This document shows, piece after piece, positions 4,952 through 16,262 of a stretch of 22,162 nucleotides of DNA (positions within the stretch are counted from its first letter, which is position 1; each line of letters opens with the position of its first letter). Origin of the DNA: Candidatus Thorarchaeota archaeon (GTDB taxonomy: Archaea; Asgardarchaeota; Thorarchaeia; Thorarchaeales; Thorarchaeaceae); NCBI GenBank assembly GCA_003345555.1, contig PRDJ01000065.1, positions 1 to 22,162 on the forward strand, written 5' to 3'. A program made the position numbers and the translations under genes. The notes under the pieces are model-generated. The model was not told the origin of the DNA. It saw only the letters and a program-made list of their open reading frames with translations, and did not search any database.

Positions 4952-6856
4952 TTATCTTCTACGGGCGAAGACAGTCAACACAACAACAACTACTGCCGCT
5001 ACTGAACCAATGATTACGACATATGTCAGTGTGTCAACGGGACCCGCCGACGTTGTCGTTGTAGTGGTCGTTGTACTAGTAGTACTTCCAGCCCAAGCAA
5101 GAGAGAAGTACGCCCGCGTGGCTATGTTGCCGCTTGTGTCATTGGCAACGACTTTGACTGCGATTGTCTTGTTCTCGAGACCAGATATCGTGGCAGAATA
5201 CACTCCACCTACTTGCGTCATCGGAACGGTCACTGTTTCCGTGTCTAGAATATATTCCAGCATGACGGTATCGACGTTGTCTGGATCGGTTACAGAAGCA
5301 CTGAAGACAACGGGTTGGTCATTTAGCGGAGAGCTCGGAGTCCACTGAACGGCGCTTATCCTAGGACCCACTTCGTCTACGTCAGGTATTGTCCCTTGTG
5401 TGCGATTCGTAACCCAATACAGGAAGTTCTCGACTACGTGAACATTGTCAAAATCGGTCTTTCCGTAATCGAAGTCACTGAAGAATGTGGTTCCTGCTAC
5501 CAACAATCGCAGAGCCCCTACCTGCTCGATTGCCATCAGCGGAGTCTGATTTCCATATTGCCCGTCGTCCGTGTCATCATAGACAACTTGGATTCCCGGT
5601 GGCACTTGGTCGGTCTGATATCCAGTGTGGTCCGCGTAGATTATGGGCAGGACCGGACCGTCGACCGTGAAGTAGAGGCTGGATGGCGAGAATAGTGTAA
5701 TGGAACTCACATTCTCCGTAAGACCGGCAGTTTGACTAGCAGCAGGAATGACTGTGAGGTCGTTGTACCATGGCTGATATGTTCCTGTCATGTAGACGTT
5801 GTCATCATTGATTCGGATGTGAGAACCAATGGCTTCGAGTATTTGATTGGGTCGGGCATCGTCCACATTAGTTGAGAAGTCTCCCCGCCCTGTCAACAGA
5901 ATCGACTTGTTTCCTGAAGAAGCCCACGTAGCGATATTCGATAGTTCATTAGCGGAATACGCATTGAGCGCGCACGTGGCTATCAGAAGGTCGACGTCTG
6001 CCAGCGAGGTCGCGTTGATCGCCGCGTATTGGATTCTCATCTCGAATCCGGCTCTTGCCAGCGTTGCATTGACTGCGTTGAGCTGTGCGCCAGTGGCATA
6101 GTCGTTTGAGTGAGCATAGTCAATGAGGGCAACATATTCAAAGGCATAAGAGACATCTGGAGCATTGATTCCCAGAGTGAGCGTGTGGAATAGACTGAGC
6201 GTTGCATTAATCGCTCTCGAAACGCAGGCCTCAGTAAGTGCTTTGATCGTCGCATTAGTGGCTATCATTCTTGAGTCGCTGCTCGGATATGCCTCAACGA
6301 CAATGTCGTAGTATTGATGTGCGAAGGTGGCACTCTGTACAACCAACTCTGTGACGTTCGGTATGTACGTCTCTGATGGTGTGGTGAGGCTGAGGCTGTC
6401 GAGGTTGTCATTTGTATCTCTTTCGTAGGCAGCATGCGCGGTGGAGTTCGGCCCTGTGTGAGTCGGCGTGCACGGGTCAGAAGAATAGTGCAACATTACA
6501 CCCGCCGCGAAGAACCCACTTTCCCAATTGCCCGCGGTGAAGTTGTCTCTAGCGAAGTTGAACCATCTGGTAGCGGCCTGAGGAGCAGTATACTGTCCGG
6601 TCTCAGGGTAGTATAGGTGATTGTCCCAGTCCTGCCACGTAGTGTCAGGAGTCGTGGATCCCTCCATAATCTCCGGAGTATAGTAGTCGAAGGCACTAGC
6701 CCAGCTAGCATTCGTGATACTGCCAATGGCCTCTGTGGCTATGAACTGATGAGTAGCTAGTCCCCAGGCACTAGCTGGGCTGGCCATGGAAAGTATCACT
6801 GCTACTGGCATCAATGGCACTACAAGAAGCATCAATGCAAACCATTGCTTCCGCAT
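4952..6856 (-). CDS. Secreted, C-terminally anchored Zn-dependent phospholipase C / S1-P1 nuclease-family protein with GldG/IFT52-like (GIFT) and Ig-like domains
   Basis: Signal peptide ending ASA|WGLATH, which places the Zn-ligating Trp at the mature N-terminus. Motifs EGSTTPD, DNHLY, LHYSSD..TPTH and HAAYE follow. Then come a LIDYAHSNDY...L-DVDLL...GNKSILLTG domain, a Thr-rich linker, a TM and RRR. The track start is 6880; a TTTAAT box at 6883-6888 favours a leaderless start at ATG 6856. Confidence 0.85.
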   Translation of the reverse strand: MRKQWFALMLLVVPLMPVAVILSMASPASAWGLATHQFIATEAIGSITNASWASAFDYYTPEIMEGSTTPDTTWQDWDNHLYYPETGQYTAPQAATRWFNFARDNFTAGNWESGFFAAGVMLHYSSDPCTPTHTGPNSTAHAAYERDTNDNLDSLSLTTPSETYIPNVTELVVQSATFAHQYYDIVVEAYPSSDSRMIATNATIKALTEACVSRAINATLSLFHTLTLGINAPDVSYAFEYVALIDYAHSNDYATGAQLNAVNATLARAGFEMRIQYAAINATSLADVDLLIATCALNAYSANELSNIATWASSGNKSILLTGRGDFSTNVDDARPNQILEAIGSHIRINDDNVYMTGTYQPWYNDLTVIPAASQTAGLTENVSSITLFSPSSLYFTVDGPVLPIIYADHTGYQTDQVPPGIQVVYDDTDDGQYGNQTPLMAIEQVGALRLLVAGTTFFSDFDYGKTDFDNVHVVENFLYWVTNRTQGTIPDVDEVGPRISAVQWTPSSPLNDQPVVFSASVTDPDNVDTVMLEYILDTETVTVPMTQVGGVYSATISGLENKTIAVKVVANDTSGNIATRAYFSLAWAGSTTSTTTTTTTTSAGPVDTLTYVVIIGSVAAVVVVVLTVFARRR

Positions 6857-7081
6857 AATGCGTCGGGATGGTTCAATCATGTATTAAACAGTACGCTCAG
6901 GAAATTGCCGGGGCGGCTAGAAGTCCGGAGGCCATTCTCAACCTTCTACAGGGGGTCTGCAAAACAAGACATTTCCGTATCGCCAAAGCACGTGGAGGAG
7001 TATGGTTACTTCAGAAGCCGTCCTCAGGATTATGTTACCATCTTATCCTATGCAAGGCGCCCAAAAGTCCTGAAGTGTGGT

Positions 7082-7094
7082 GAAAGACCCTATA
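7082..7094 (+). promoter_or_regulatory. Promoter-like motif GAAAGACCCTATA (copy 1)
   Basis: Identical 13-mer at 10132-10144 and a 1-mismatch copy at 8600-8613; all three are intergenic and upstream of plus-strand units. Confidence 0.5.
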
Positions 7095-7142
7095 TTTCCT
7101 GCGGGTCATTCTTCGAAAGTATGATAGAGTGTCTTGACTGTA

Positions 7143-7252: not shown

Positions 7253-7501
7253 ATGTCGGAGGACTCTGTTTCCAGGGAACTGGATGAGGCTATTGAGCGA
7301 GCCGACACCATCGTGGTACCCGGATTCTTGGATAGGTTTGATTCATCGTCTGGCGTCATGTTCAGGGAGCTGGCGATGCGAGAACGCATGTTGCGTGAGC
7401 CGCCTTCAGTTACGAATCTTCTCGTGACTGCCAGTGCAGGACGCGGTACGACCTGTCGGTATCAGGCAAGCCCAATTCTCGCAGGAGTGATTCCAAAATG
7501 A
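7253..7501 (+). CDS. Hypothetical 82-aa protein (possibly a frameshifted N-terminus of the TPR gene)
   Basis: ATG start; ATGA overlap with the next ORF at 7498-7501. Confidence 0.5.
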   Translation: MSEDSVSRELDEAIERADTIVVPGFLDRFDSSSGVMFRELAMRERMLREPPSVTNLLVTASAGRGTTCRYQASPILAGVIPK

Positions 7502-8067
7502 ACAGCGAAACAGATCAAGCAATTGGTGGTATGGATATCGAGCTTCTCAAGTGCGTTGATGGAGTCTTCGTGAAGCAAGTCCGTATCGTCCGGTCTGACC
7601 CAAAGGACGGATGGGCTTGGCTGAGGTTAGCGGGTCTAGCTCTCAGAACAGGTCCCAAGAGCGAAACCGTCGATGCCTTCGAATCCGTAGTGTCAGAAGT
7701 AGGAGATAGCTACTTGGGATGGTTTCTGCTTGGCAAACTTGAAGACCGGCTTGGCTTTTGGCGCAAGGCGGAGTCCGCATACAGGAGAGCGATACGGCTC
7801 GAGAGGACTGATGCAGCTCTGTGGACGAGTCTTGGCGGAGTATTCAGGAGCGAAGGAAGATACCATGCGGCCGAGAGAGCCCTTCTCAGGGCGGTCGAAC
7901 TGAATCCGGAATACTCACAGGCTTGGTTGGATCTTGCATCGGTCTATTCAGAGCTTGGCGACAGCGTTCAATGCAGAGCTGCACTAGAAAAAGCATACGA
8001 CTCAGATTCACTGAGCGTAGCCGAATATGTGAGAGCCCTTGAAAGAAGCGCAAGGGCAATCCGGTAA
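7498..8067 (+). CDS. Tetratricopeptide repeat protein
   Basis: About 4 TPR-like units, e.g. WTSLGGVFRSEGRYHAAERALLRAVELNPEYSQAWLDLA and WFLLGKL...AESAYRRAIRL. Confidence 0.85.
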   Translation: MNSETDQAIGGMDIELLKCVDGVFVKQVRIVRSDPKDGWAWLRLAGLALRTGPKSETVDAFESVVSEVGDSYLGWFLLGKLEDRLGFWRKAESAYRRAIRLERTDAALWTSLGGVFRSEGRYHAAERALLRAVELNPEYSQAWLDLASVYSELGDSVQCRAALEKAYDSDSLSVAEYVRALERSARAIR

Positions 8068-8086: not shown

Positions 8087-8398
8087 TCATTCGGTGTCTT
8101 CTGTTCTCCCGGGTCTTCCATCGGGCCTAGGCATTTGCAGCGCAACTTGGGTTGTTCTCCAGTGAGAGCTAGAACACCCCCGGACGCAGCAGACAACAAA
8201 CATCACCAGAGCCATGAGAGCTATAATGAATACGTTGACGGGGTCAGTAATAAGGTGAAGAACGCCGGCCGCTTCGCTGATTTTGAAGATGACAAACAGA
8301 GCGAGTGCAACAACCGCAATGATTACGACAATCTTTAGCGTCCTCGCAGTAATGCCCCCTGTATGCGAACTCGACGAACAGAAATGTTCTACTTACAT
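8087..8398 (-). pseudogene. Small 2-TM membrane protein ORF absent from the track; ATG followed immediately by TAA
   Basis: ATG 8398-8396, TAA 8395-8393, then an open frame to TGA 8089-8087 reading ...TLKIVVIIAVVALALFVIFKISEAAGVLHLITDPVNVFIIALMALVMFVVCCVRG... Confidence 0.55.
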
Positions 8399-8599: not shown

Positions 8600-8613
8600 A
8601 AAGACTCTATAAG
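8600..8613 (+). promoter_or_regulatory. Promoter-like motif AAAGACTCTATAAG (copy 2)
   Basis: 13/14 identical to AAAGACCCTATAAG at 10133-10146; 43 nt before ATG 8656. Confidence 0.55.
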
Positions 8614-8655: not shown

Positions 8656-9756
8656 ATGGCAAGCGAAAGCAGTAAGCAGAGTAACGCAGGTGTCATTATC
8701 TGTACTATTTTCATTATTTCGTTGATTGCACTCATCACCACAGTTACCAGTTTCCCATATGCACCATACGGGATTGCAGCAATCGTGCCGATTATTGTTT
8801 GTTTTGTGGCATCTTTCGCTATGTGTGCTGTTATGCCTTCACAAAATGCGAGTAGGCTGACAACGCCGGAGATCACCTTCGGATCAGAGGGGAGCAGGAG
8901 AAGCACAGCAGTTATTGTGAGAATGGACCAGACGCTCGGATCCGAAGAAAGAGCGGCAGAGGTACAGGTTCTTCGAGGAGGCGAATTCGTCGGGAACAGA
9001 CTGAGGTACAAGGTCAAGATTCTCAACAAGTCCAAGTACGTGATAACAGACGTCACTGTCAGTCTGGTCACGTACCCAAGGGGTGCTCTGTCTGTGGAAG
9101 GTCCAACGGCGAAGAGCATCACCAAGATTGAGCCAAGCGGCTTCATGAGTCCCGCTTTCGAGTTCCTTCCCACTCAAGATTGTGTGAAGGGCGACATAGT
9201 TGCGAACGTCTCTTACGTCGATCACGAGGGTAGGGCATATTCGACTATGACGGAGCCGTACACTGTGAGGTCGGTATGTGACCTGCTCATGCCTGAACGT
9301 ATCTCTCCTGACGATTTCGAGCGCCGTCTCGAAAACCTGACCCACGGAGAGATGGCATCAAGGGTCGATGAATGGACCCCCGAGGAGATGCATTCTAAGG
9401 CCCTTCAAGTCCTCGGAAAATCAAACTTCTCAGAAGTGAAGAGCGAACGCGCGATGATAGGTGAGAAGATCGAGTCGAGGGTTACCGGCTGGGCACGCGG
9501 CAAGTACACCGGCAAGAACTTGGGTGTTGAGATTACCATCACAGGCAGACCGGACACAAGAGGTGCCGTCTGCAGAATCCGGATATCAGGTCAGGATGAG
9601 GCAATGATACTGCCTGCGATAGACGAGATGTCGCACAACCTGAGTGCATGGCTTTGTCCAGTTTGTGTCGGTGAATTACCTCCCGAGTCCGTTGATGGCA
9701 TTAGGGCCGGGCGACATGCAAAGTGTCCATTCTGCGGTGCCATAGTGGGAAGGTAG
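8656..9756 (+). CDS. 2-TM protein with adaptin/coatomer appendage-like domain and C-terminal Zn ribbon (paralog A)
   Basis: Two hydrophobic helices at about aa 12-58, then a beta-rich LRYKVKILN..VITDVTV sandwich. A VCDLLMPERISPDDFERRLENL hinge resembles the alpha-adaptin/gamma-COP ear, followed by a platform-like region and CPVC-x20-CPFC. Confidence 0.8.
   Translation: MASESSKQSNAGVIICTIFIISLIALITTVTSFPYAPYGIAAIVPIIVCFVASFAMCAVMPSQNASRLTTPEITFGSEGSRRSTAVIVRMDQTLGSEERAAEVQVLRGGEFVGNRLRYKVKILNKSKYVITDVTVSLVTYPRGALSVEGPTAKSITKIEPSGFMSPAFEFLPTQDCVKGDIVANVSYVDHEGRAYSTMTEPYTVRSVCDLLMPERISPDDFERRLENLTHGEMASRVDEWTPEEMHSKALQVLGKSNFSEVKSERAMIGEKIESRVTGWARGKYTGKNLGVEITITGRPDTRGAVCRIRISGQDEAMILPAIDEMSHNLSAWLCPVCVGELPPESVDGIRAGRHAKCPFCGAIVGR
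8962..9756 (+). repeat. Duplicated 264-codon cassette, copy 1 (copy 2 at 11256-12050)
   Basis: Colinear without indels from VQVLRGGEF to VGR-stop; 189/264 aa identical by manual count (about 72%). Confidence 0.95.
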
Positions 9757-9928
9757 GTTGGGAGACCCGTCGAACAACTGCATAAGTCGCACGATTCGTA
9801 TGAAAATGCTCTTTTTCCATTTCAACCAATGAGCTGATTTATATTCAACCTCCGCATTATGTACCATTGTGGTTGGTTGGTCTGCAGGGCTCGTTTTCGT
9901 TACATGCCCTCATTTACGAAACTCCCCC

Positions 9929-10004
9929 CTCCTACCACGATTTACCCTGCGGGCCCCAGCCACACCCTGTGATTACGGGCGTGATAGCGGGAATCTGGTA
10001 GGAG
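9929..10004. other. Intergenic long stem-loop / candidate sRNA
   Basis: CTCCTACCA (9929-9937) pairs with TGGTAGGAG (9996-10004), continued by GATT/AATC and CCC-GC/GCGGG, with an inner CAC-ACCC...GGG-CGTG hairpin. TTTATATT at 9838-9845 lies upstream. Confidence 0.4.
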
Positions 10005-10131
10005 TACTGCAATTCTGAGAATCCGATTTCCACATAGAGTATTGATAGCCATTCTTTACAGATGCCAGAGATTGCATCGTTGAGCATGGACCGGATTCAG
10101 CGGCTTTCGCGGCTAAGAGCGTGCTGGTAAG

Positions 10132-10146
10132 GAAAGACCCTATAAG
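10132..10146 (+). promoter_or_regulatory. Promoter-like motif GAAAGACCCTATAAG (copy 3)
   Basis: 33 nt before GTG 10179; matches the copies at 7082 and 8600. Confidence 0.55.
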
Positions 10147-10178
10147 AGAATAATGCGAAATATCAGTCGGAGATATCG

Positions 10179-12050
10179 GTGCAAAAGGGGGATGTCTTCT
10201 ATAGTTTCTATACGTTGTCCATTCTGGTCTATACGATTATCAGCGTAACCTACTTCTGGAACAACAAGGCTGTCGCATACGCGACGATAGGCTTTGGTTT
10301 GATAGCTGCTGTCATGGTTCTCATAACTGCTATCTGGCCGGCCAATCTGAGCGTGGATCAAAAGACACAACTTCGTGAACTAATTAAGGAAAGAAGAAGT
10401 CTGCCCATAGCACTGGTTGCCAGCCAGATGGGCATGTCAGTCGCCAAGGCTGCCGGGGTCTTGCGGCGAACTGGTTTTCTTGCTCTGTCGTCAGATGCAT
10501 CTACTGTGCTCAGTATTACTCGGCTGACTGAAGACCTCCTCTCCCACGCGGACACTATGGGGAAAATCGATGTTCATGCGGTTTGTGCCGAATGGTCCCT
10601 TGATGAGAGATTCTTGGTTTCCTTGGTTCCAAAGATGAGCAAGGACGTGATAGCGAATAACGCAGGTAACCTCTATTCTAGGTCCGCCCTTGAGAAGATT
10701 GTGGAAACTGAATTGGCAACCAAGGGAAGATTCGACGCCCGAGAAGAGGCAATCAAGAGAGGCCTTACGCTACAAGGCTCCGACGTCGTCTTTTCGCTGG
10801 CCAAGCTCAAGATACCTGTATTGGTGACCATTGCCGGAGCATATTTGCGAAAGGACATGGTCATTCGTAATCTAAAAAGCACCCTTGACGAAAGAGGCGT
10901 GCTTGACCTCGGCGTTGAGTCGAGGAAACTCGGAGTCTATGATGCAGCCCTGTATCTAGCAGATGCTCTTACGGACACATCACACATTAGAATCCCGGGG
11001 ACGTCCCTGATTGCCGATAAGTCTTGGATAACCGATCTCCAGCGAAGGGCAAGAGAGATGGGTGTCGTCAACCTGAAGGAATTTGCCGATTCTCTTGGAA
11101 TATCTAGTGCCAGTCTGGGATTGGTGCTCTCTACTTACTTGCAGGGATTTGTGGATGAATCGACAGGGATATTCTATGTGCGTGGAGCCCCTGTGTATAC
11201 TCCTGCAGCCGGGAGACCGAAAGAAGCGTATGCCGCCAGAGCTGTTACGACAGATGTACAGGTCCTTCGGGGTGGCGAGTTTGTCGGGAATAGGCTCCGA
11301 TACAAGGTCAAGGTACTGAATAACACGAGGTTCGTCATAACTGATGTTACCGTTAGCTTGGTCACATATCCTCGCGACGCGATGTCAGTAGAAGGTCCCA
11401 TTGTCAAGACCATTGCCAAGATTGACCCAAGCGGTTTCGACAGCCCGTTGTTTGAGTTCTTGCCAACAAAGGACTGTGTCAAGGGCGATATCATTGCTAT
11501 GACATCCTATGTTGATCATGAGGGGAAGCCGCACACGGCAATGACGGAACCATTCACTGTCCGAGCAGTATGTGACCTTTTGATCCCTGAGAACATCACC
11601 CCCGAACAGTTTGAGCTTAGACTTGCGGACTTGAGCCATGGCGAGATGACGTTCAAAGTTGAGGACTGGACACCCGAGGAAATGCACTCAAAGGCACTGC
11701 AGGTTCTCGAGAAGTCCAACTTCTCGGAAGTGACTTCAAATCAGAGCACGATTGGAGAACACATCCAATCGAGAATCACTGGGTGGGCTCGCGGGAAGTA
11801 TACAAGAAAGAATCTTGGAGTTGAGGTCACAATAACTGGCAGGCCTGGAGTTAAAGGGGCTACTTGCTCCGTCAGGATGTCAGGCGAGGATGAAGCCATG
11901 ATAATGCCGGCAATTGACGAGATGTCTCAGAACCTGACTGCTTGGCTTTGTCCCATGTGCGGTGGTGACATGCCAGAACATGCGGTGAGTCTGATTCGCG
12001 AAGGGAAGCATAGCAAGTGTCCCTTCTGCGGCGTGACGGTAGGCAGATGA
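10179..12050 (+). CDS. 2-TM protein with tandem winged-helix (UFL1/PCI-like) repeats, adaptin/coatomer appendage-like domain and Zn ribbon (paralog B)
   Basis: Two N-terminal TMs; repeated G-x-[IVLF]-[DN]-x4-A-x2-[LW]G units (GKIDVHAVCAEWSL, GRFDAREEAIKRGL, GVLDLGVESRKLGV, GVVNLKEFADSLGI). Same C-terminal cassette as 8656-9756, ending in CPMC-x20-CPFC. Confidence 0.8.
   Translation: MQKGDVFYSFYTLSILVYTIISVTYFWNNKAVAYATIGFGLIAAVMVLITAIWPANLSVDQKTQLRELIKERRSLPIALVASQMGMSVAKAAGVLRRTGFLALSSDASTVLSITRLTEDLLSHADTMGKIDVHAVCAEWSLDERFLVSLVPKMSKDVIANNAGNLYSRSALEKIVETELATKGRFDAREEAIKRGLTLQGSDVVFSLAKLKIPVLVTIAGAYLRKDMVIRNLKSTLDERGVLDLGVESRKLGVYDAALYLADALTDTSHIRIPGTSLIADKSWITDLQRRAREMGVVNLKEFADSLGISSASLGLVLSTYLQGFVDESTGIFYVRGAPVYTPAAGRPKEAYAARAVTTDVQVLRGGEFVGNRLRYKVKVLNNTRFVITDVTVSLVTYPRDAMSVEGPIVKTIAKIDPSGFDSPLFEFLPTKDCVKGDIIAMTSYVDHEGKPHTAMTEPFTVRAVCDLLIPENITPEQFELRLADLSHGEMTFKVEDWTPEEMHSKALQVLEKSNFSEVTSNQSTIGEHIQSRITGWARGKYTRKNLGVEVTITGRPGVKGATCSVRMSGEDEAMIMPAIDEMSQNLTAWLCPMCGGDMPEHAVSLIREGKHSKCPFCGVTVGR
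11256..12050 (+). repeat. Duplicated 264-codon cassette, copy 2
   Basis: See 8962-9756. Confidence 0.95.
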
Positions 12051-13841: not shown

Positions 13842-16262
13842 TTGCAGAGAGAAGGGTTACTAACGGTATTCGCGGTTGCTCTGTTTGTCTCGAGTGCGCT
13901 AGCGCCGGTCGGAACACTCTCATACCTTCCCCCCAGGACGACTTGGGCTGAATCATCTAGCGTGCAGGCGGCACTGTCCAACGGCGAAACCGAGCAATTA
14001 ACAGTGACAGTCTCAGATGACTCTTGCGTTGCCGATTCCGTGCCGGACACCAACTTCAATACCTTCGGGTCTCTCTTTGTCGGAATGGAACCATATGAGA
14101 CAATCATCGGTCGTAGCTGGCTGAAGTTCAATCTCTCGCATGTGCCTGACACTGTGAGAATCCTAAGCGCTGAGATGTTTGTCCAGGTGTATGCGGAATA
14201 CGAGTCATACGGAGTAGCTGATCGCCCGATCGGAAGTTACTACTCAGCGAATGATACGTGGAAGGAAAGCACAATCACTTGGAACACTGCGCCCACGTTC
14301 TCCTCTTCGCCGAGCTATGTCATTTCTAGTCCCCCCAGCCCCAACATGTTTGTTCCGTTTTACTGGTATTCTTGGGATGTTACGGCGGACGTGAGAACAA
14401 CTATCGCAGGCGACAAGATACTCACTGAGGTCCTTAAAGTCGTTAATGAATCCGAGTTCGTCTCGTGTTTCAAGTATTTCTACGATAGAGAATCTCTTTA
14501 CTTCAATGCCTCATATCTCGCCCTTACGTATACGACTCCCGTGGCCAGCAGTCTAGCCGTAGATGGTTATTCCACCGTTCCACACATTGACTACATAATG
14601 GACTCTGCTCCAGATCTTTCGTGGCAGTTCTCTGACAGCGATTCAGGTGACATCCAGAAGGGCTACGATTTGGATGTGTATGAAGGAACAAGCACAACCG
14701 GAATCCCGATTTGGCAGACGAACACAACCGAGCTCGTCACAATCTACTCGGGTGCTGCATCCGCCAATGCGAGGCCCTTCGCCACTTCCGGCGAAATGAG
14801 ATACCAGATGAAGATTCCCAAGTCAATGCTTTCGAGAACAGGGGTCGTTGACAAGCTGTACATCCAAGTGACCGATTCCGCGACAGTGGTTCTTCAGGAC
14901 TTGAGTGTCGCGATGTTGAGCGTTAGCTCAAGCGCAGACCTGGGAAGCACATTCGCGAGCAACTACGAAGGCCTAACTCCTGTGCAGGTCCTGTATAGCG
15001 AAGAATACAGTGTAACGATCACTGACTCTTGGCTTGTGATTGACGTGCAGAATACATTCGTCCTGAGCAACAGGTCCAACTTGCTTATAGAGCTCCGATT
15101 CATGGACAACATAGGCGACTTTGTTAATACGTTCTACACGACGGCGTCAACCGGAGCATCAGTTGCGTACACATATGGAGCGGGCGCATACACAAGCACA
15201 ACGGCCGGCGTTAATGCCACCAGAACTCACAACATAAAGATTGAGTTCGCCAGCACCGAAGTCTTCGCTGCTGGCATCGGCGCGAACAGCTACCCGTTCA
15301 ATTGGGCCACTGCCAAGATGCAATTCAAGTACAACAAGTCTATAATCAACACTGAGGGTTACATCGACCGAATTCTGTTTGGAGTGAACGAGCTGGATGC
15401 ATCGGCTACATTGTATAACCTCACTATGCTGCTTGTTGAGACTCCCGTTGAAGGCATACTGTACCCGACTTTCTCAGCAAACTATGGCGGGGTCACTCCA
15501 ACAGTCGTCCTTCAAGAAACAGAGTACCGGCCCACGAACCTTGGTCAATGGCTCGTCTTTGATGTGGCGAACAGTTTCTATTACTCCAACTCTCACGACC
15601 TGTTGATCGAAATCAGTTTTGACAGCAGGGCTGGCGACGGGATGCTTGCACGGTACAAGGCCAATGGTGGCGGATACCGGTCATGGAACATGACTGATTC
15701 CCACGGAGCTACATGCAGTCGAGATGCTGCCACATATGAGCTAAACCTCGACATGATTCATTCTGAGCAACAGCTGATGTATGGAGGTTCGCCGCTCGTT
15801 AACGGGACGACGTACTACTTCCAAGCGAAGGTTTGTGATAGCACGGGCGTCTGGTCGTCCTTCTCGAGCCTAGTCTTCAGATACCAGGCAATCCACGGAG
15901 TTCCAACATGGGGAAACCTCACTGTGACTCCGAGTCCGGTAGTACTTGGGCAACCAGTGACGGTATCGATAGATGTCGAGTACTTCTTGGGAGTGAACAA
16001 TGTCCTCATTGAATACGGCGGTTCGAACTACAGCATGTTAGCTCTGGGCGTCGTTTATTCACACACGTGGACGCCAAGCGCAGCTGGAGTCGTGAACTTC
16101 ACTATCTATATGGAATCCTTCACACGCGACTGGGACACAGCTTCGGGCTCGTTTGAAGTCCAGCAAGGTGGCTTCGATATGACACTGCTGATAGTGGGAG
16201 GCGTCGCCGCTGCTGCAGTCGTAGTTGTTGTACTCCTCTTATACAGCAGACGAAAGAAGTAG
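13842..16262 (+). CDS. Cell-surface protein: signal peptide, DNRLRE domain, FN3-like domain with two inserted tandem repeats, Ig-like domain, C-terminal TM
   Basis: DSCVADSVP..N..LFVG...RSWLKFNLS...W-ES-ITWNTAP (DNRLRE). Two ~170-aa repeats (FASNYEG-TPVQVL...WLVIDV / FSANYGG-TPTVVL...WLVFDV), many N-x-S/T sequons, and a TM plus RRKK. Confidence 0.85.
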   Translation: MQREGLLTVFAVALFVSSALAPVGTLSYLPPRTTWAESSSVQAALSNGETEQLTVTVSDDSCVADSVPDTNFNTFGSLFVGMEPYETIIGRSWLKFNLSHVPDTVRILSAEMFVQVYAEYESYGVADRPIGSYYSANDTWKESTITWNTAPTFSSSPSYVISSPPSPNMFVPFYWYSWDVTADVRTTIAGDKILTEVLKVVNESEFVSCFKYFYDRESLYFNASYLALTYTTPVASSLAVDGYSTVPHIDYIMDSAPDLSWQFSDSDSGDIQKGYDLDVYEGTSTTGIPIWQTNTTELVTIYSGAASANARPFATSGEMRYQMKIPKSMLSRTGVVDKLYIQVTDSATVVLQDLSVAMLSVSSSADLGSTFASNYEGLTPVQVLYSEEYSVTITDSWLVIDVQNTFVLSNRSNLLIELRFMDNIGDFVNTFYTTASTGASVAYTYGAGAYTSTTAGVNATRTHNIKIEFASTEVFAAGIGANSYPFNWATAKMQFKYNKSIINTEGYIDRILFGVNELDASATLYNLTMLLVETPVEGILYPTFSANYGGVTPTVVLQETEYRPTNLGQWLVFDVANSFYYSNSHDLLIEISFDSRAGDGMLARYKANGGGYRSWNMTDSHGATCSRDAATYELNLDMIHSEQQLMYGGSPLVNGTTYYFQAKVCDSTGVWSSFSSLVFRYQAIHGVPTWGNLTVTPSPVVLGQPVTVSIDVEYFLGVNNVLIEYGGSNYSMLALGVVYSHTWTPSAAGVVNFTIYMESFTRDWDTASGSFEVQQGGFDMTLLIVGGVAAAAVVVVVLLLYSRRKK

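Follow-up and report, generated by a model that had tools for sequence, protein, structure and literature searches.

The window analysed here, 22,162 nucleotides (nt) of contig PRDJ01000065.1 (positions 1 to 22,162) from the Candidatus Thorarchaeota archaeon assembly GCA_003345555.1, carries two tandem genes, open reading frame A (ORF A) and ORF B, whose products end in the same C-terminal module, an ear-like domain followed by a four-cysteine (C4) zinc ribbon. Its predicted fold resembles the appendage, or ear, of the large subunits of the COPI and AP adaptor complexes, and the modelled structure comes closest to that of beta-COP. Across the Asgard archaea it appears to be a portable C-terminal handle, most often held one transmembrane helix away from ectodomains of varied kinds. 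We lean towards viewing such proteins as membrane-fixed protein-interaction hubs, in which an ear-like cytoplasmic module would be displayed on varied anchors, by analogy with the ears of eukaryotic vesicle coats.

Two old paralogues sharing a C-terminal cassette

An earlier, sequence-only reading of this DNA had proposed two tandem ORFs, and both are present, at 8656-9756 and 10179-12050. Their parts are listed here, with positions counted along the window.

8656..9756 (+): ORF A, 366 amino acids (aa), with a transmembrane hairpin, a linker, the ear-like module and a zinc ribbon
8689..8829 (+): hydrophobic hairpin of ORF A, residues 12-30 and 40-58 (Kyte-Doolittle window means 2.7 and 2.6)
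8962..9273 (+): predicted beta-sandwich of ORF A (Ig/GAE-like), residues 103-206, from the AlphaFold2 strands and the match to the GGA2 GAE domain
9286..9645 (+): predicted platform of ORF A (TBP-like alpha/beta), residues 211-330, from the AlphaFold2 elements and the match to 2mj7
9649..9753 (+): C4 zinc ribbon of ORF A, CPVC-x19-CPFC, with its four cysteines invariant in the family alignment
10179..12050 (+): ORF B, 623 aa, GTG start, with a membrane anchor, five winged helices, the ear-like module and a zinc ribbon
10200-10256 (+): weaker hydrophobic segment of ORF B, residues 8-26 (mean Kyte-Doolittle value ~1.3, counted by hand)
10275..10337 (+): strong transmembrane helix of ORF B, about residues 33-53, from hydropathy
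10341..11198 (+): five predicted winged-helix repeats of ORF B, UFL1/PCI-like, from the AlphaFold2 model and Foldseek
11256..11567 (+): predicted beta-sandwich of ORF B, residues 360-463, from the gap-free alignment to ORF A
11580..11939 (+): predicted platform of ORF B, residues 468-587, from the gap-free alignment to ORF A
11943..12047 (+): C4 zinc ribbon of ORF B, CPMC-x19-CPFC, from the alignment to ORF A and the invariant cysteines

In a protein alignment, the C-terminal 265 residues of ORF A and ORF B match without gaps at 71% identity (E = 4e-151). The common C-terminal domain plus ribbon described from the sequence was thereby confirmed, except that the spacing between the two cysteine pairs is x19 and not x20. 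N-terminal to this 265-residue module, protein comparison found no alignable similarity between the two. Compared as DNA, the shared stretches agree at 67.5% of positions (37% of third codon positions), the proportion of synonymous differences (pS) is 0.82 and therefore saturated, and the nonsynonymous distance (dN) is 0.20. The 150 nt lying 5' of the module boundary are 33% identical, which is about the level expected by chance. Because the synonymous sites are saturated, dN is low, and the 5' flank is at chance identity, the duplication behind ORF A and ORF B is an old one, and the cassette that they share is sharply delimited and has been under strong purifying selection. The saturated silent sites and the chance-level flank exclude recent copying or gene conversion of the module.

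The N-terminal anchors of the two proteins are less alike. Both had been credited with a hairpin of two transmembrane helices; in ORF A this hairpin is clear from hydropathy, with two strong helices, and is separated from the ear-like module by a linker of 44 residues. ORF B has one strong helix, and a hairpin is only probable there because the segment at residues 8-26 is weakly hydrophobic.

Predicted fold, topology and attachments of the module

ORF A residues 95-366 were modelled with AlphaFold2 using a 66-row family alignment, giving a mean per-residue confidence (pLDDT) of 90.7 and a predicted template-modelling score (pTM) of 0.71. In model numbering, a beta-sandwich (residues 9-112) is followed by an alpha/beta subdomain (residues 117-236, with elements in the order E-H-E-H-E-E-E-E-H) and then by the zinc ribbon. 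The model shows the three features expected of an appendage, namely an Ig-like sandwich, a TBP-like platform and bilobed packing of the two. A plain Ig/CARDB domain, which had been named beforehand as the outcome that would speak against an appendage, was not obtained, since the platform subdomain is present.

Against the PDB, Foldseek ranked the COPI leaf chain 9qpq_H first (E = 7.8e-12, template-modelling (TM) score 0.67/0.74, root-mean-square deviation (rmsd) 3.5 Å over 240 columns), followed by the AP2 alpha and beta2 ears, the gamma-COP appendage and BBSome subunits. A search of 48,161 PDB representatives with VIA-align, which is independent of Foldseek, gave the alpha ear as its top match (Z = 15.2, 210 residues), with the beta2 ear (Z = 14.0) and gamma-COP (Z = 13.3) next. 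In the same search, the match to the AP-4 beta appendage 2mj7 covered the platform region (Z = 12.9, rmsd 2.5 Å, model residues 81-237) and that to the GGA2 GAE domain 3mnm covered the sandwich (Z = 10.2, model residues 6-112), and the coat-ear matches outranked all single Ig-like domains that match the sandwich alone. Among the Swiss-Prot models of AFDB, the top 30 Foldseek matches were all coatomer beta/gamma, AP beta/delta or TPLATE. The beta-COP models superposed with TM scores of 0.65-0.68 and rmsd values of 3.2-4.0 Å over 232-246 residues, and these alignments reached model residue 236; the fit to the alpha, beta2 and gamma ears was looser (rmsd 4.6-8.5 Å). The appendage-type fold put forward by the sequence-only reading is thus well borne out at the level of prediction, by the bilobed sandwich and platform and by coat-adaptor appendages as top matches in three structure searches. 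Among AFDB clusters, the fold with its ribbon also recurs in uncharacterised proteins annotated as TPR, WD40, DUF11, PQQ or ArsR, and these clusters rank above the eukaryotic coatomers.

The module shares the order and orientation of its subdomains, as well as the predicted cytoplasmic location, with the eukaryotic ears of COPI (beta- and gamma-COP), AP (alpha, beta and delta), TPLATE and the BBSome, and on the strength of the model homology to these ears is plausible. Unlike them, it has no hinge leading to a heterotetramer solenoid trunk; instead, it is tethered directly by transmembrane segments and capped by the C4 ribbon, and the module family has no detectable sequence similarity to the eukaryotic proteins.

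Membrane topology was evaluated for 67 family representatives in which one or more hydrophobic helices lie N-terminal to the module, using the 15 residues that flank the last transmembrane helix on each side. Lysine and arginine together averaged 3.5 on the module side versus 0.37 before the helix, with the bias directed toward the module in 58 proteins and in the opposite direction in 5. The 29 type-I-like proteins had 3-8 such residues after the helix and mostly 0 before it. Because of this positive-inside charge bias, together with the C4 zinc ribbon, the module is predicted to lie in the cytoplasm. The cytoplasmic ear had been anticipated, and an extracellular module, the other outcome set out in advance as adverse, was not found.

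The family is large and conserved. A word-based search returned 296 relatives, all annotated as hypothetical, and those that were named all came from metagenome bins of Thorarchaeota, Hodarchaeota or Promethearchaeota/Lokiarchaeota, while an exhaustive search yielded, at 50% identity, 378 representative clusters, of which 137 had E values below 1e-30. Thorarchaeota paralogues of the module are 50-60% identical. In an alignment of 66 modules, the four ribbon cysteines and six other positions are invariant, and weak Zn_ribbon_9 matches were obtained for 24 of these members. Positions that hardly vary include, in ORF A numbering, N124, P141, F168, P172, D175-C176, G179, a VCDLLxP hinge, N257-F258, a GxAxGKYT turn and W332. 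Pfam and NCBIfam searches with ORF A and ORF B left the shared module unmatched except for weak zinc-ribbon matches. When 400 Asgard genomes were surveyed with a profile of the module, 239 contained a match, including 79 of 85 genomes in the family of the source organism and 127 of 135 in another large family; in several Asgard families the profile found no match (e.g., 0/31, 0/22 and 0/19 genomes). Several paralogues are found per genome, often in tandem. In the source genome the module occurs three times: in ORF A, in ORF B and in a soluble protein of 758 aa on another contig.

This third paralogue (L003 49-2325, contig C55) carries its ear and ribbon behind about six Cys/His zinc-ribbon repeats. 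In this Thorarchaeota family, frames of ~760-780 aa account for many of the strongest ear matches, and in at least one frame of this size winged helices, rather than zinc-ribbon repeats, precede the ear. Forms of ~760-780 aa may be the most conserved ones.

The proteins to which the module is attached are diverse. A sample of 80 family representatives comprised 29 type I proteins, 12 N-anchored proteins with a short anchor like that of ORF A, 20 multipass proteins, 13 soluble proteins and 6 that could not be classed. The type I layout consists of a signal-like segment, a large N-terminal region and one transmembrane helix, with the module usually following 20-70 residues further on. The Pfam families recognised in the ectodomains include NosD/right-handed beta-helix, PKD, bacterial Ig domains, TSP3 repeats, DUF7948 and LRR, as well as SBBP, PQQ and LVIVD propellers and a family-5 solute-binding domain, and one ectodomain-bearing relative is labelled 'exported protein' in its source annotation. 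Among the soluble forms, P0223 (Thorarchaeota) joins a ten-repeat TPR array to the ear, and P0239 (Lokiarchaeota) joins WD40 propellers to it; a TPR array is also fused to the ear in AFDB entry A0A524M8E6. In P0245, a metagenomic protein of 780 aa whose cluster includes a Njordarchaeum protein, an EAP30/Vps36-family domain (PF04157, E = 1.5e-9) directly follows the ear, and this is the only direct ESCRT fusion seen.

The window also encodes two large secreted or surface proteins, at 4952-6880 (-) and 13842-16262 (+), one of them with a zinc-phospholipase-C-like domain and one with CBM96. In contrast to the ear-tailed family, both end in a C-terminal transmembrane helix with a basic tail of only 3-5 residues, which is the usual way of anchoring in this genome.

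Between its anchor and the shared module, ORF B is modelled as five winged-helix repeats with an H-E-H-H-E-E pattern (residues 55-340, AlphaFold2, pLDDT 82). The top Foldseek matches to this array were UFL1 (8qfc_B, E = 3.9e-11; 8b9x_B, TM score 0.51/0.58), followed by SelB. The ORF B middle did not match PF09743 at E<=1, a word-based homologue search with it recovered only ORF B, and the protein atlas gave nothing usable. Matches resembling it were nevertheless obtained in 20 of 86 genomes of the source family, at ~20-25% identity and mostly in frames of ~650-670 aa. In addition, three closed genomes of another Asgard family (Lokiarchaeia-type) each contain one ribbon-less ear match in a frame of ~800 aa. 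Because the one of these that was examined combines a winged-helix array with the ear, the pairing is old, with ORF B as a membrane-anchored version.

Some individual relatives illustrate the range of these arrays. The same-genus protein at L015 5564-7528 (genome G334), the one examined among the matches to the ORF B middle, has 654 aa, one transmembrane helix and about eight winged-helix repeats and lacks an ear; it matches PF09743 (UFL1) at 2.3e-9, and related loci are L017-L035. The proteins at L042, L043 and L044 are soluble, ~756-810 aa long and present in one copy per closed genome. The one at L043 1153-3423 (closed 4.4-Mb genome G135) combines zinc ribbons, a PCI/UFL1-like array, an ear that lacks the C-terminal ribbon, and a tail of helices.

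The ORF B middle resembles the N-terminal array of UFL1 (PF09743) and PCI proteins in its five tandem winged helices, and its relatives match PF09743 and PCI. Unlike UFL1, the array of ORF B has no DDRGK1, UFC1 or UFM1 context, is membrane-anchored and is fused to an ear. It is improbable that the family has a signalling or modification output, with the ribbon and the UFL1/PCI-like winged helices acting in ubiquitin-like marking or in transmembrane signalling. Such a role would be in keeping with the UFL1-like fold predicted for the ORF B middle, with the closed Lokiarchaeia-type genomes that encode a zinc ribbon, a PCI/UFL1-like array and an ear in one protein, and with weak zf_UBZ matches in 7 of the 66 aligned members; however, these matches lie far under the threshold (best E = 0.06), a winged-helix array is missing from most of the family, and no E1, E2 or UFM1-like gene is found nearby among the window ORFs.

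Gene neighbourhood of ORF A and ORF B

Upstream of ORF A lies a gene for a small tetratricopeptide repeat (TPR) protein, and a short promoter-like motif precedes both ear genes and, in a weaker copy, the TPR unit.

7083..7096 (+): weaker copy of the promoter-like motif, with 2 mismatches, 5' of the TPR unit
7498..8067 (+): TPR protein, 189 aa, from TPR Pfam matches
8600..8613 (+): promoter-like motif AAAGACTCTATAAG, 43 nt 5' of the ORF A start codon
10133..10146 (+): promoter-like motif AAAGACCCTATAAG, 33 nt 5' of the ORF B GTG start

Within the 2.28-Mb genome, the 14-nt motif AAAGACYCTATAAG is limited to the sites 5' of the two ear genes when at most one mismatch is allowed, and both sites also agree in their flanks, with GTGCT on the upstream and TGCG on the downstream side. 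The motif has the look of a BRE/TATA-type promoter specific to these paralogues. Since the silent sites of the coding regions are saturated, its retention would reflect selection, which points to a regulatory element common to ORF A and ORF B.

The TPR protein had been suggested as a possible functional partner of the ear proteins. Only two orthologues of it were found (70% and 68% identity), the first from another genome of the genus (L014), the other from a short Logan metagenome contig (L041), not necessarily in that order; each adjoins an ear gene, no more distant orthologues were found, and the TPR-ear adjacency is confined to the source genus. The order of TPR gene, small minus-strand ORF and ear gene is the same in the window and in L041. 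A predicted complex of the ear module with the TPR protein, run without controls, scored 0.00 and says nothing either way.

Several features of these loci may be recorded alongside. The single ear gene beside the TPR orthologue at L014 9249-10041 (same-genus genome G333) is interrupted at about module residue 95 by a frameshift or stop codon; it is a pseudogene, unless the assembly is in error at this point. In the window, the TPR gene and ORF A are separated by a strongly hydrophobic frame with two transmembrane-like stretches at 8087-8340 (-), in which no ATG, GTG or TTG start lies ahead of an internal methionine; at the same place in L041, a hydrophobic ORF of 95 aa was called (1013-1300, -). 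An ORF of 82 aa located 5' of the TPR gene (7253-7501) was considered as a conserved gene and dropped, as it is unlike the ORF at the same place in L041.

In another Thorarchaeota genus (L004-L011), three or four ear paralogues with transmembrane anchors are found per locus. These arrays are interleaved with a conserved multipass protein of 303 aa, DMT/EamA-like by eye, and also with several ~268-aa proteins in which a signal peptide is combined with a C-terminal anchor, and they are flanked by a 727-aa protein and a helicase-like protein of 930 aa. The seven arrays have no conserved TPR gene; a single TPR gene, unrelated to that of the window, is the exception. The partnership with the TPR protein is therefore not upheld, as its orthologues occur only in close relatives and the arrays of the other genus lack a conserved counterpart. 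The other genes of the window encode a gamma-glutamyltranspeptidase, an aspartase/fumarase-type lyase, an alcohol dehydrogenase and the two surface proteins with short basic tails. Synteny of these genes with the paralogue arrays of the other genus was looked for and not found.

These neighbourhoods bear on the possibility of a proto-coat adaptor operating at the level of the locus, composed of the two ear proteins, the TPR protein and small transmembrane proteins. The conserved order in the window and L041, the TPR-ear adjacency in L014, the promoter-like motif at both ear genes with its weaker copy before the TPR unit, and the TPR-ear fusions P0223 and A0A524M8E6 are what such a unit would predict. 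However, the TPR orthologues (68-70% identity) are restricted to very close relatives, the seven arrays of the other genus lack a conserved TPR gene, and TPR repeats are promiscuous fusion partners. Moreover, the small minus-strand frame of the window has no canonical start codon, and no solenoid trunk, small GTPase or cage protein is encoded in this locus. We consider a locus-level adaptor of this kind very unlikely.

Proposed function and relation to known appendages

In the interpretation that we moderately favour, that of a membrane-fixed interaction hub, the anchors of ORF A and ORF B would fix the module to the membrane on its cytoplasmic face, where it would couple its carrier proteins to one shared cytosolic partner, much as eukaryotic ears bind accessory proteins. 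A sub-membrane scaffold, or a machine for sorting or membrane remodelling, would be a plausible partner. Binding to a common partner (or to itself) is suggested because the module is conserved across paralogues while the N-terminal parts vary freely, and a hub is favoured because of the analogy with eukaryotic ears, which serve as interaction hubs, and with the published archaeal cases. By this analogy, the module may bind partners, and, going by the modelled fold, it could have a proto-coat function.

Several lines of evidence weigh against this interpretation. (i) At the sequence level, none of the appendage families PF02883, PF02296, PF09066, PF07718, PF14806, PF08752 and PF16381 matched ORF A or ORF B at E<=1, and the same families are absent from the 25 families most often matched by the 66 aligned members (E<=10). 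The sole sequence hints are matches to GAE_BBS1 in 5 of the 66 (best E = 0.01) and to TRAPPC13_C in 6, and the 66-member profile, searched against PDB sequences, gave only zinc-ribbon noise and beta-arrestin at E = 0.7. (ii) The likeness to eukaryotic ears is one of predicted fold. (iii) The main ORFs of the window include no coat, GTPase or ESCRT gene and nothing related to trafficking, and no GTPase, coat or ESCRT gene was recognised in the seven arrays of the other genus, where the ORFs were not family-scanned. (iv) ESCRT-II does not follow the module in its distribution: EAP30 is present throughout the module-less families f8 (31/31), f10 (12/12) and f11 (22/22), and it was not found in f17, where the module occurs in 3/3 genomes.

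With regard to point (iii), the proto-coat adaptor proposed in the sequence-only reading finds no backing in its own locus and is left with the predicted fold as its argument. As to point (iv), ESCRT-II (PF04157) is nearly universal in the phylum (354 of the 400 Asgard genomes). Co-distribution with ESCRT-II had been considered as support for an ESCRT link; the phyletic patterns are uncoupled, and therefore they lend it none. The locus of ORF A and ORF B also does not lie in an ESCRT (Vps4/ESCRT-III) neighbourhood.

The low sequence similarity invites the explanation that the likeness to coat ears reflects convergence, or reuse of Ig and TBP-like folds, with no tie to trafficking. In its favour, identity to eukaryotic ears in the structural matches is 10-18%, there is no match at the profile level, and many unrelated Ig-like domains reach Z values of 9-12 on the sandwich alone. 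However, both subdomains match jointly, in the same order and orientation, with an rmsd of 3.2-4.0 Å over ~240 residues of beta-COP, the two-subdomain ear matches outrank every single-domain match, and in P0245 the ear is fused to an ESCRT-II domain. We therefore regard convergence as having little probability.

Alternatively, the module could be a self-associating sub-membrane scaffold that clusters or anchors surface proteins, for example as an inner lattice or as a link to an actin-like cytoskeleton. One highly conserved tail on many unrelated ectodomains and the presence of several paralogues per genome, often in tandem, would suit such a scaffold, as would the report that Asgard cells carry surface proteins on a wall-less membrane (10.1101/2025.11.30.690169). 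Against this, the genomic data do not connect the module with actin genes or any others of the cytoskeleton. Polymerisation is also not known for established ears, and on balance we find a scaffold unlikely.

An extension of the hub interpretation, which we put forward only tentatively and with low confidence, is that ear and ribbon serve the surface proteome of Asgard archaea at large as a cytoplasmic handle. In this scheme, the cargo-like proteins themselves would carry the ear and a shared cytosolic machine would read it, an inverted, pre-adaptor form of cargo selection that would be ancestral to the soluble adaptor ears of eukaryotes.

Appendage regions in archaea are known already. The text of Makarova et al. 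2024 (10.1101/2024.02.06.579148) describes adaptin appendage regions composed of IG and TBP domains in archaea (the Meth_adaptin loci), including one methanogen protein with a zinc ribbon and another linked through a transmembrane segment to a GOLD domain, as well as Asgard multidomain forms with Vps28-C, longin, TPR and helix-turn-helix (HTH)/PCI domains. It assigns the appendage domain to the last archaeal common ancestor and ties the archaeal appendage regions to ESCRT loci. Pfam-detectable adaptin C-terminal/beta2-appendage domains were also reported by Eme et al. 2023 (PMC10307638); these are sparse in Asgard genomes and stand alone, not on adaptin trunks.

The present proteins resemble those in the text of Makarova et al. 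in their IG and TBP region, zinc ribbon and transmembrane anchors, and in the additional TPR repeats (P0223) and winged helices (ORF B). The combination of ear, membrane anchor and ribbon, regarded as a new architecture in the sequence-only reading, was thus already foreshadowed by the archaeal appendage regions with a zinc ribbon or a transmembrane link in that text. Unlike the loci described there, ORF A and ORF B lie outside an ESCRT/Vps4 neighbourhood, and unlike the domains of Eme et al., the module family is invisible to Pfam and occurs in 239 of the 400 Asgard genomes. Use of the ear family as the cytoplasmic tail of type I surface proteins was not found in the text of Makarova et al. 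Two structure-based surveys of Asgard proteins do not mention appendage domains. What we did not find in the searchable literature, and regard as new, is the breadth of this Pfam-invisible family, its predicted use as the inner tail of type I proteins and the membrane-anchored form in which winged helices are joined to an ear.

In eukaryotic vesicle coats the ears act as recruitment hubs, and their origin bears on the open question of how the endomembrane system arose. A well-conserved family of predicted ears is widespread in Asgard archaea and is mostly attached directly to membrane proteins, a good number of which are surface proteins whose ectodomains are large. Even without a common partner, this provides an annotation for several hundred 'hypothetical' Asgard proteins. 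If a common cytosolic partner does exist, the module would offer a testable entry into protein sorting or surface organisation in Asgard archaea, and it would suggest that ears acted at the membrane before soluble adaptor complexes.

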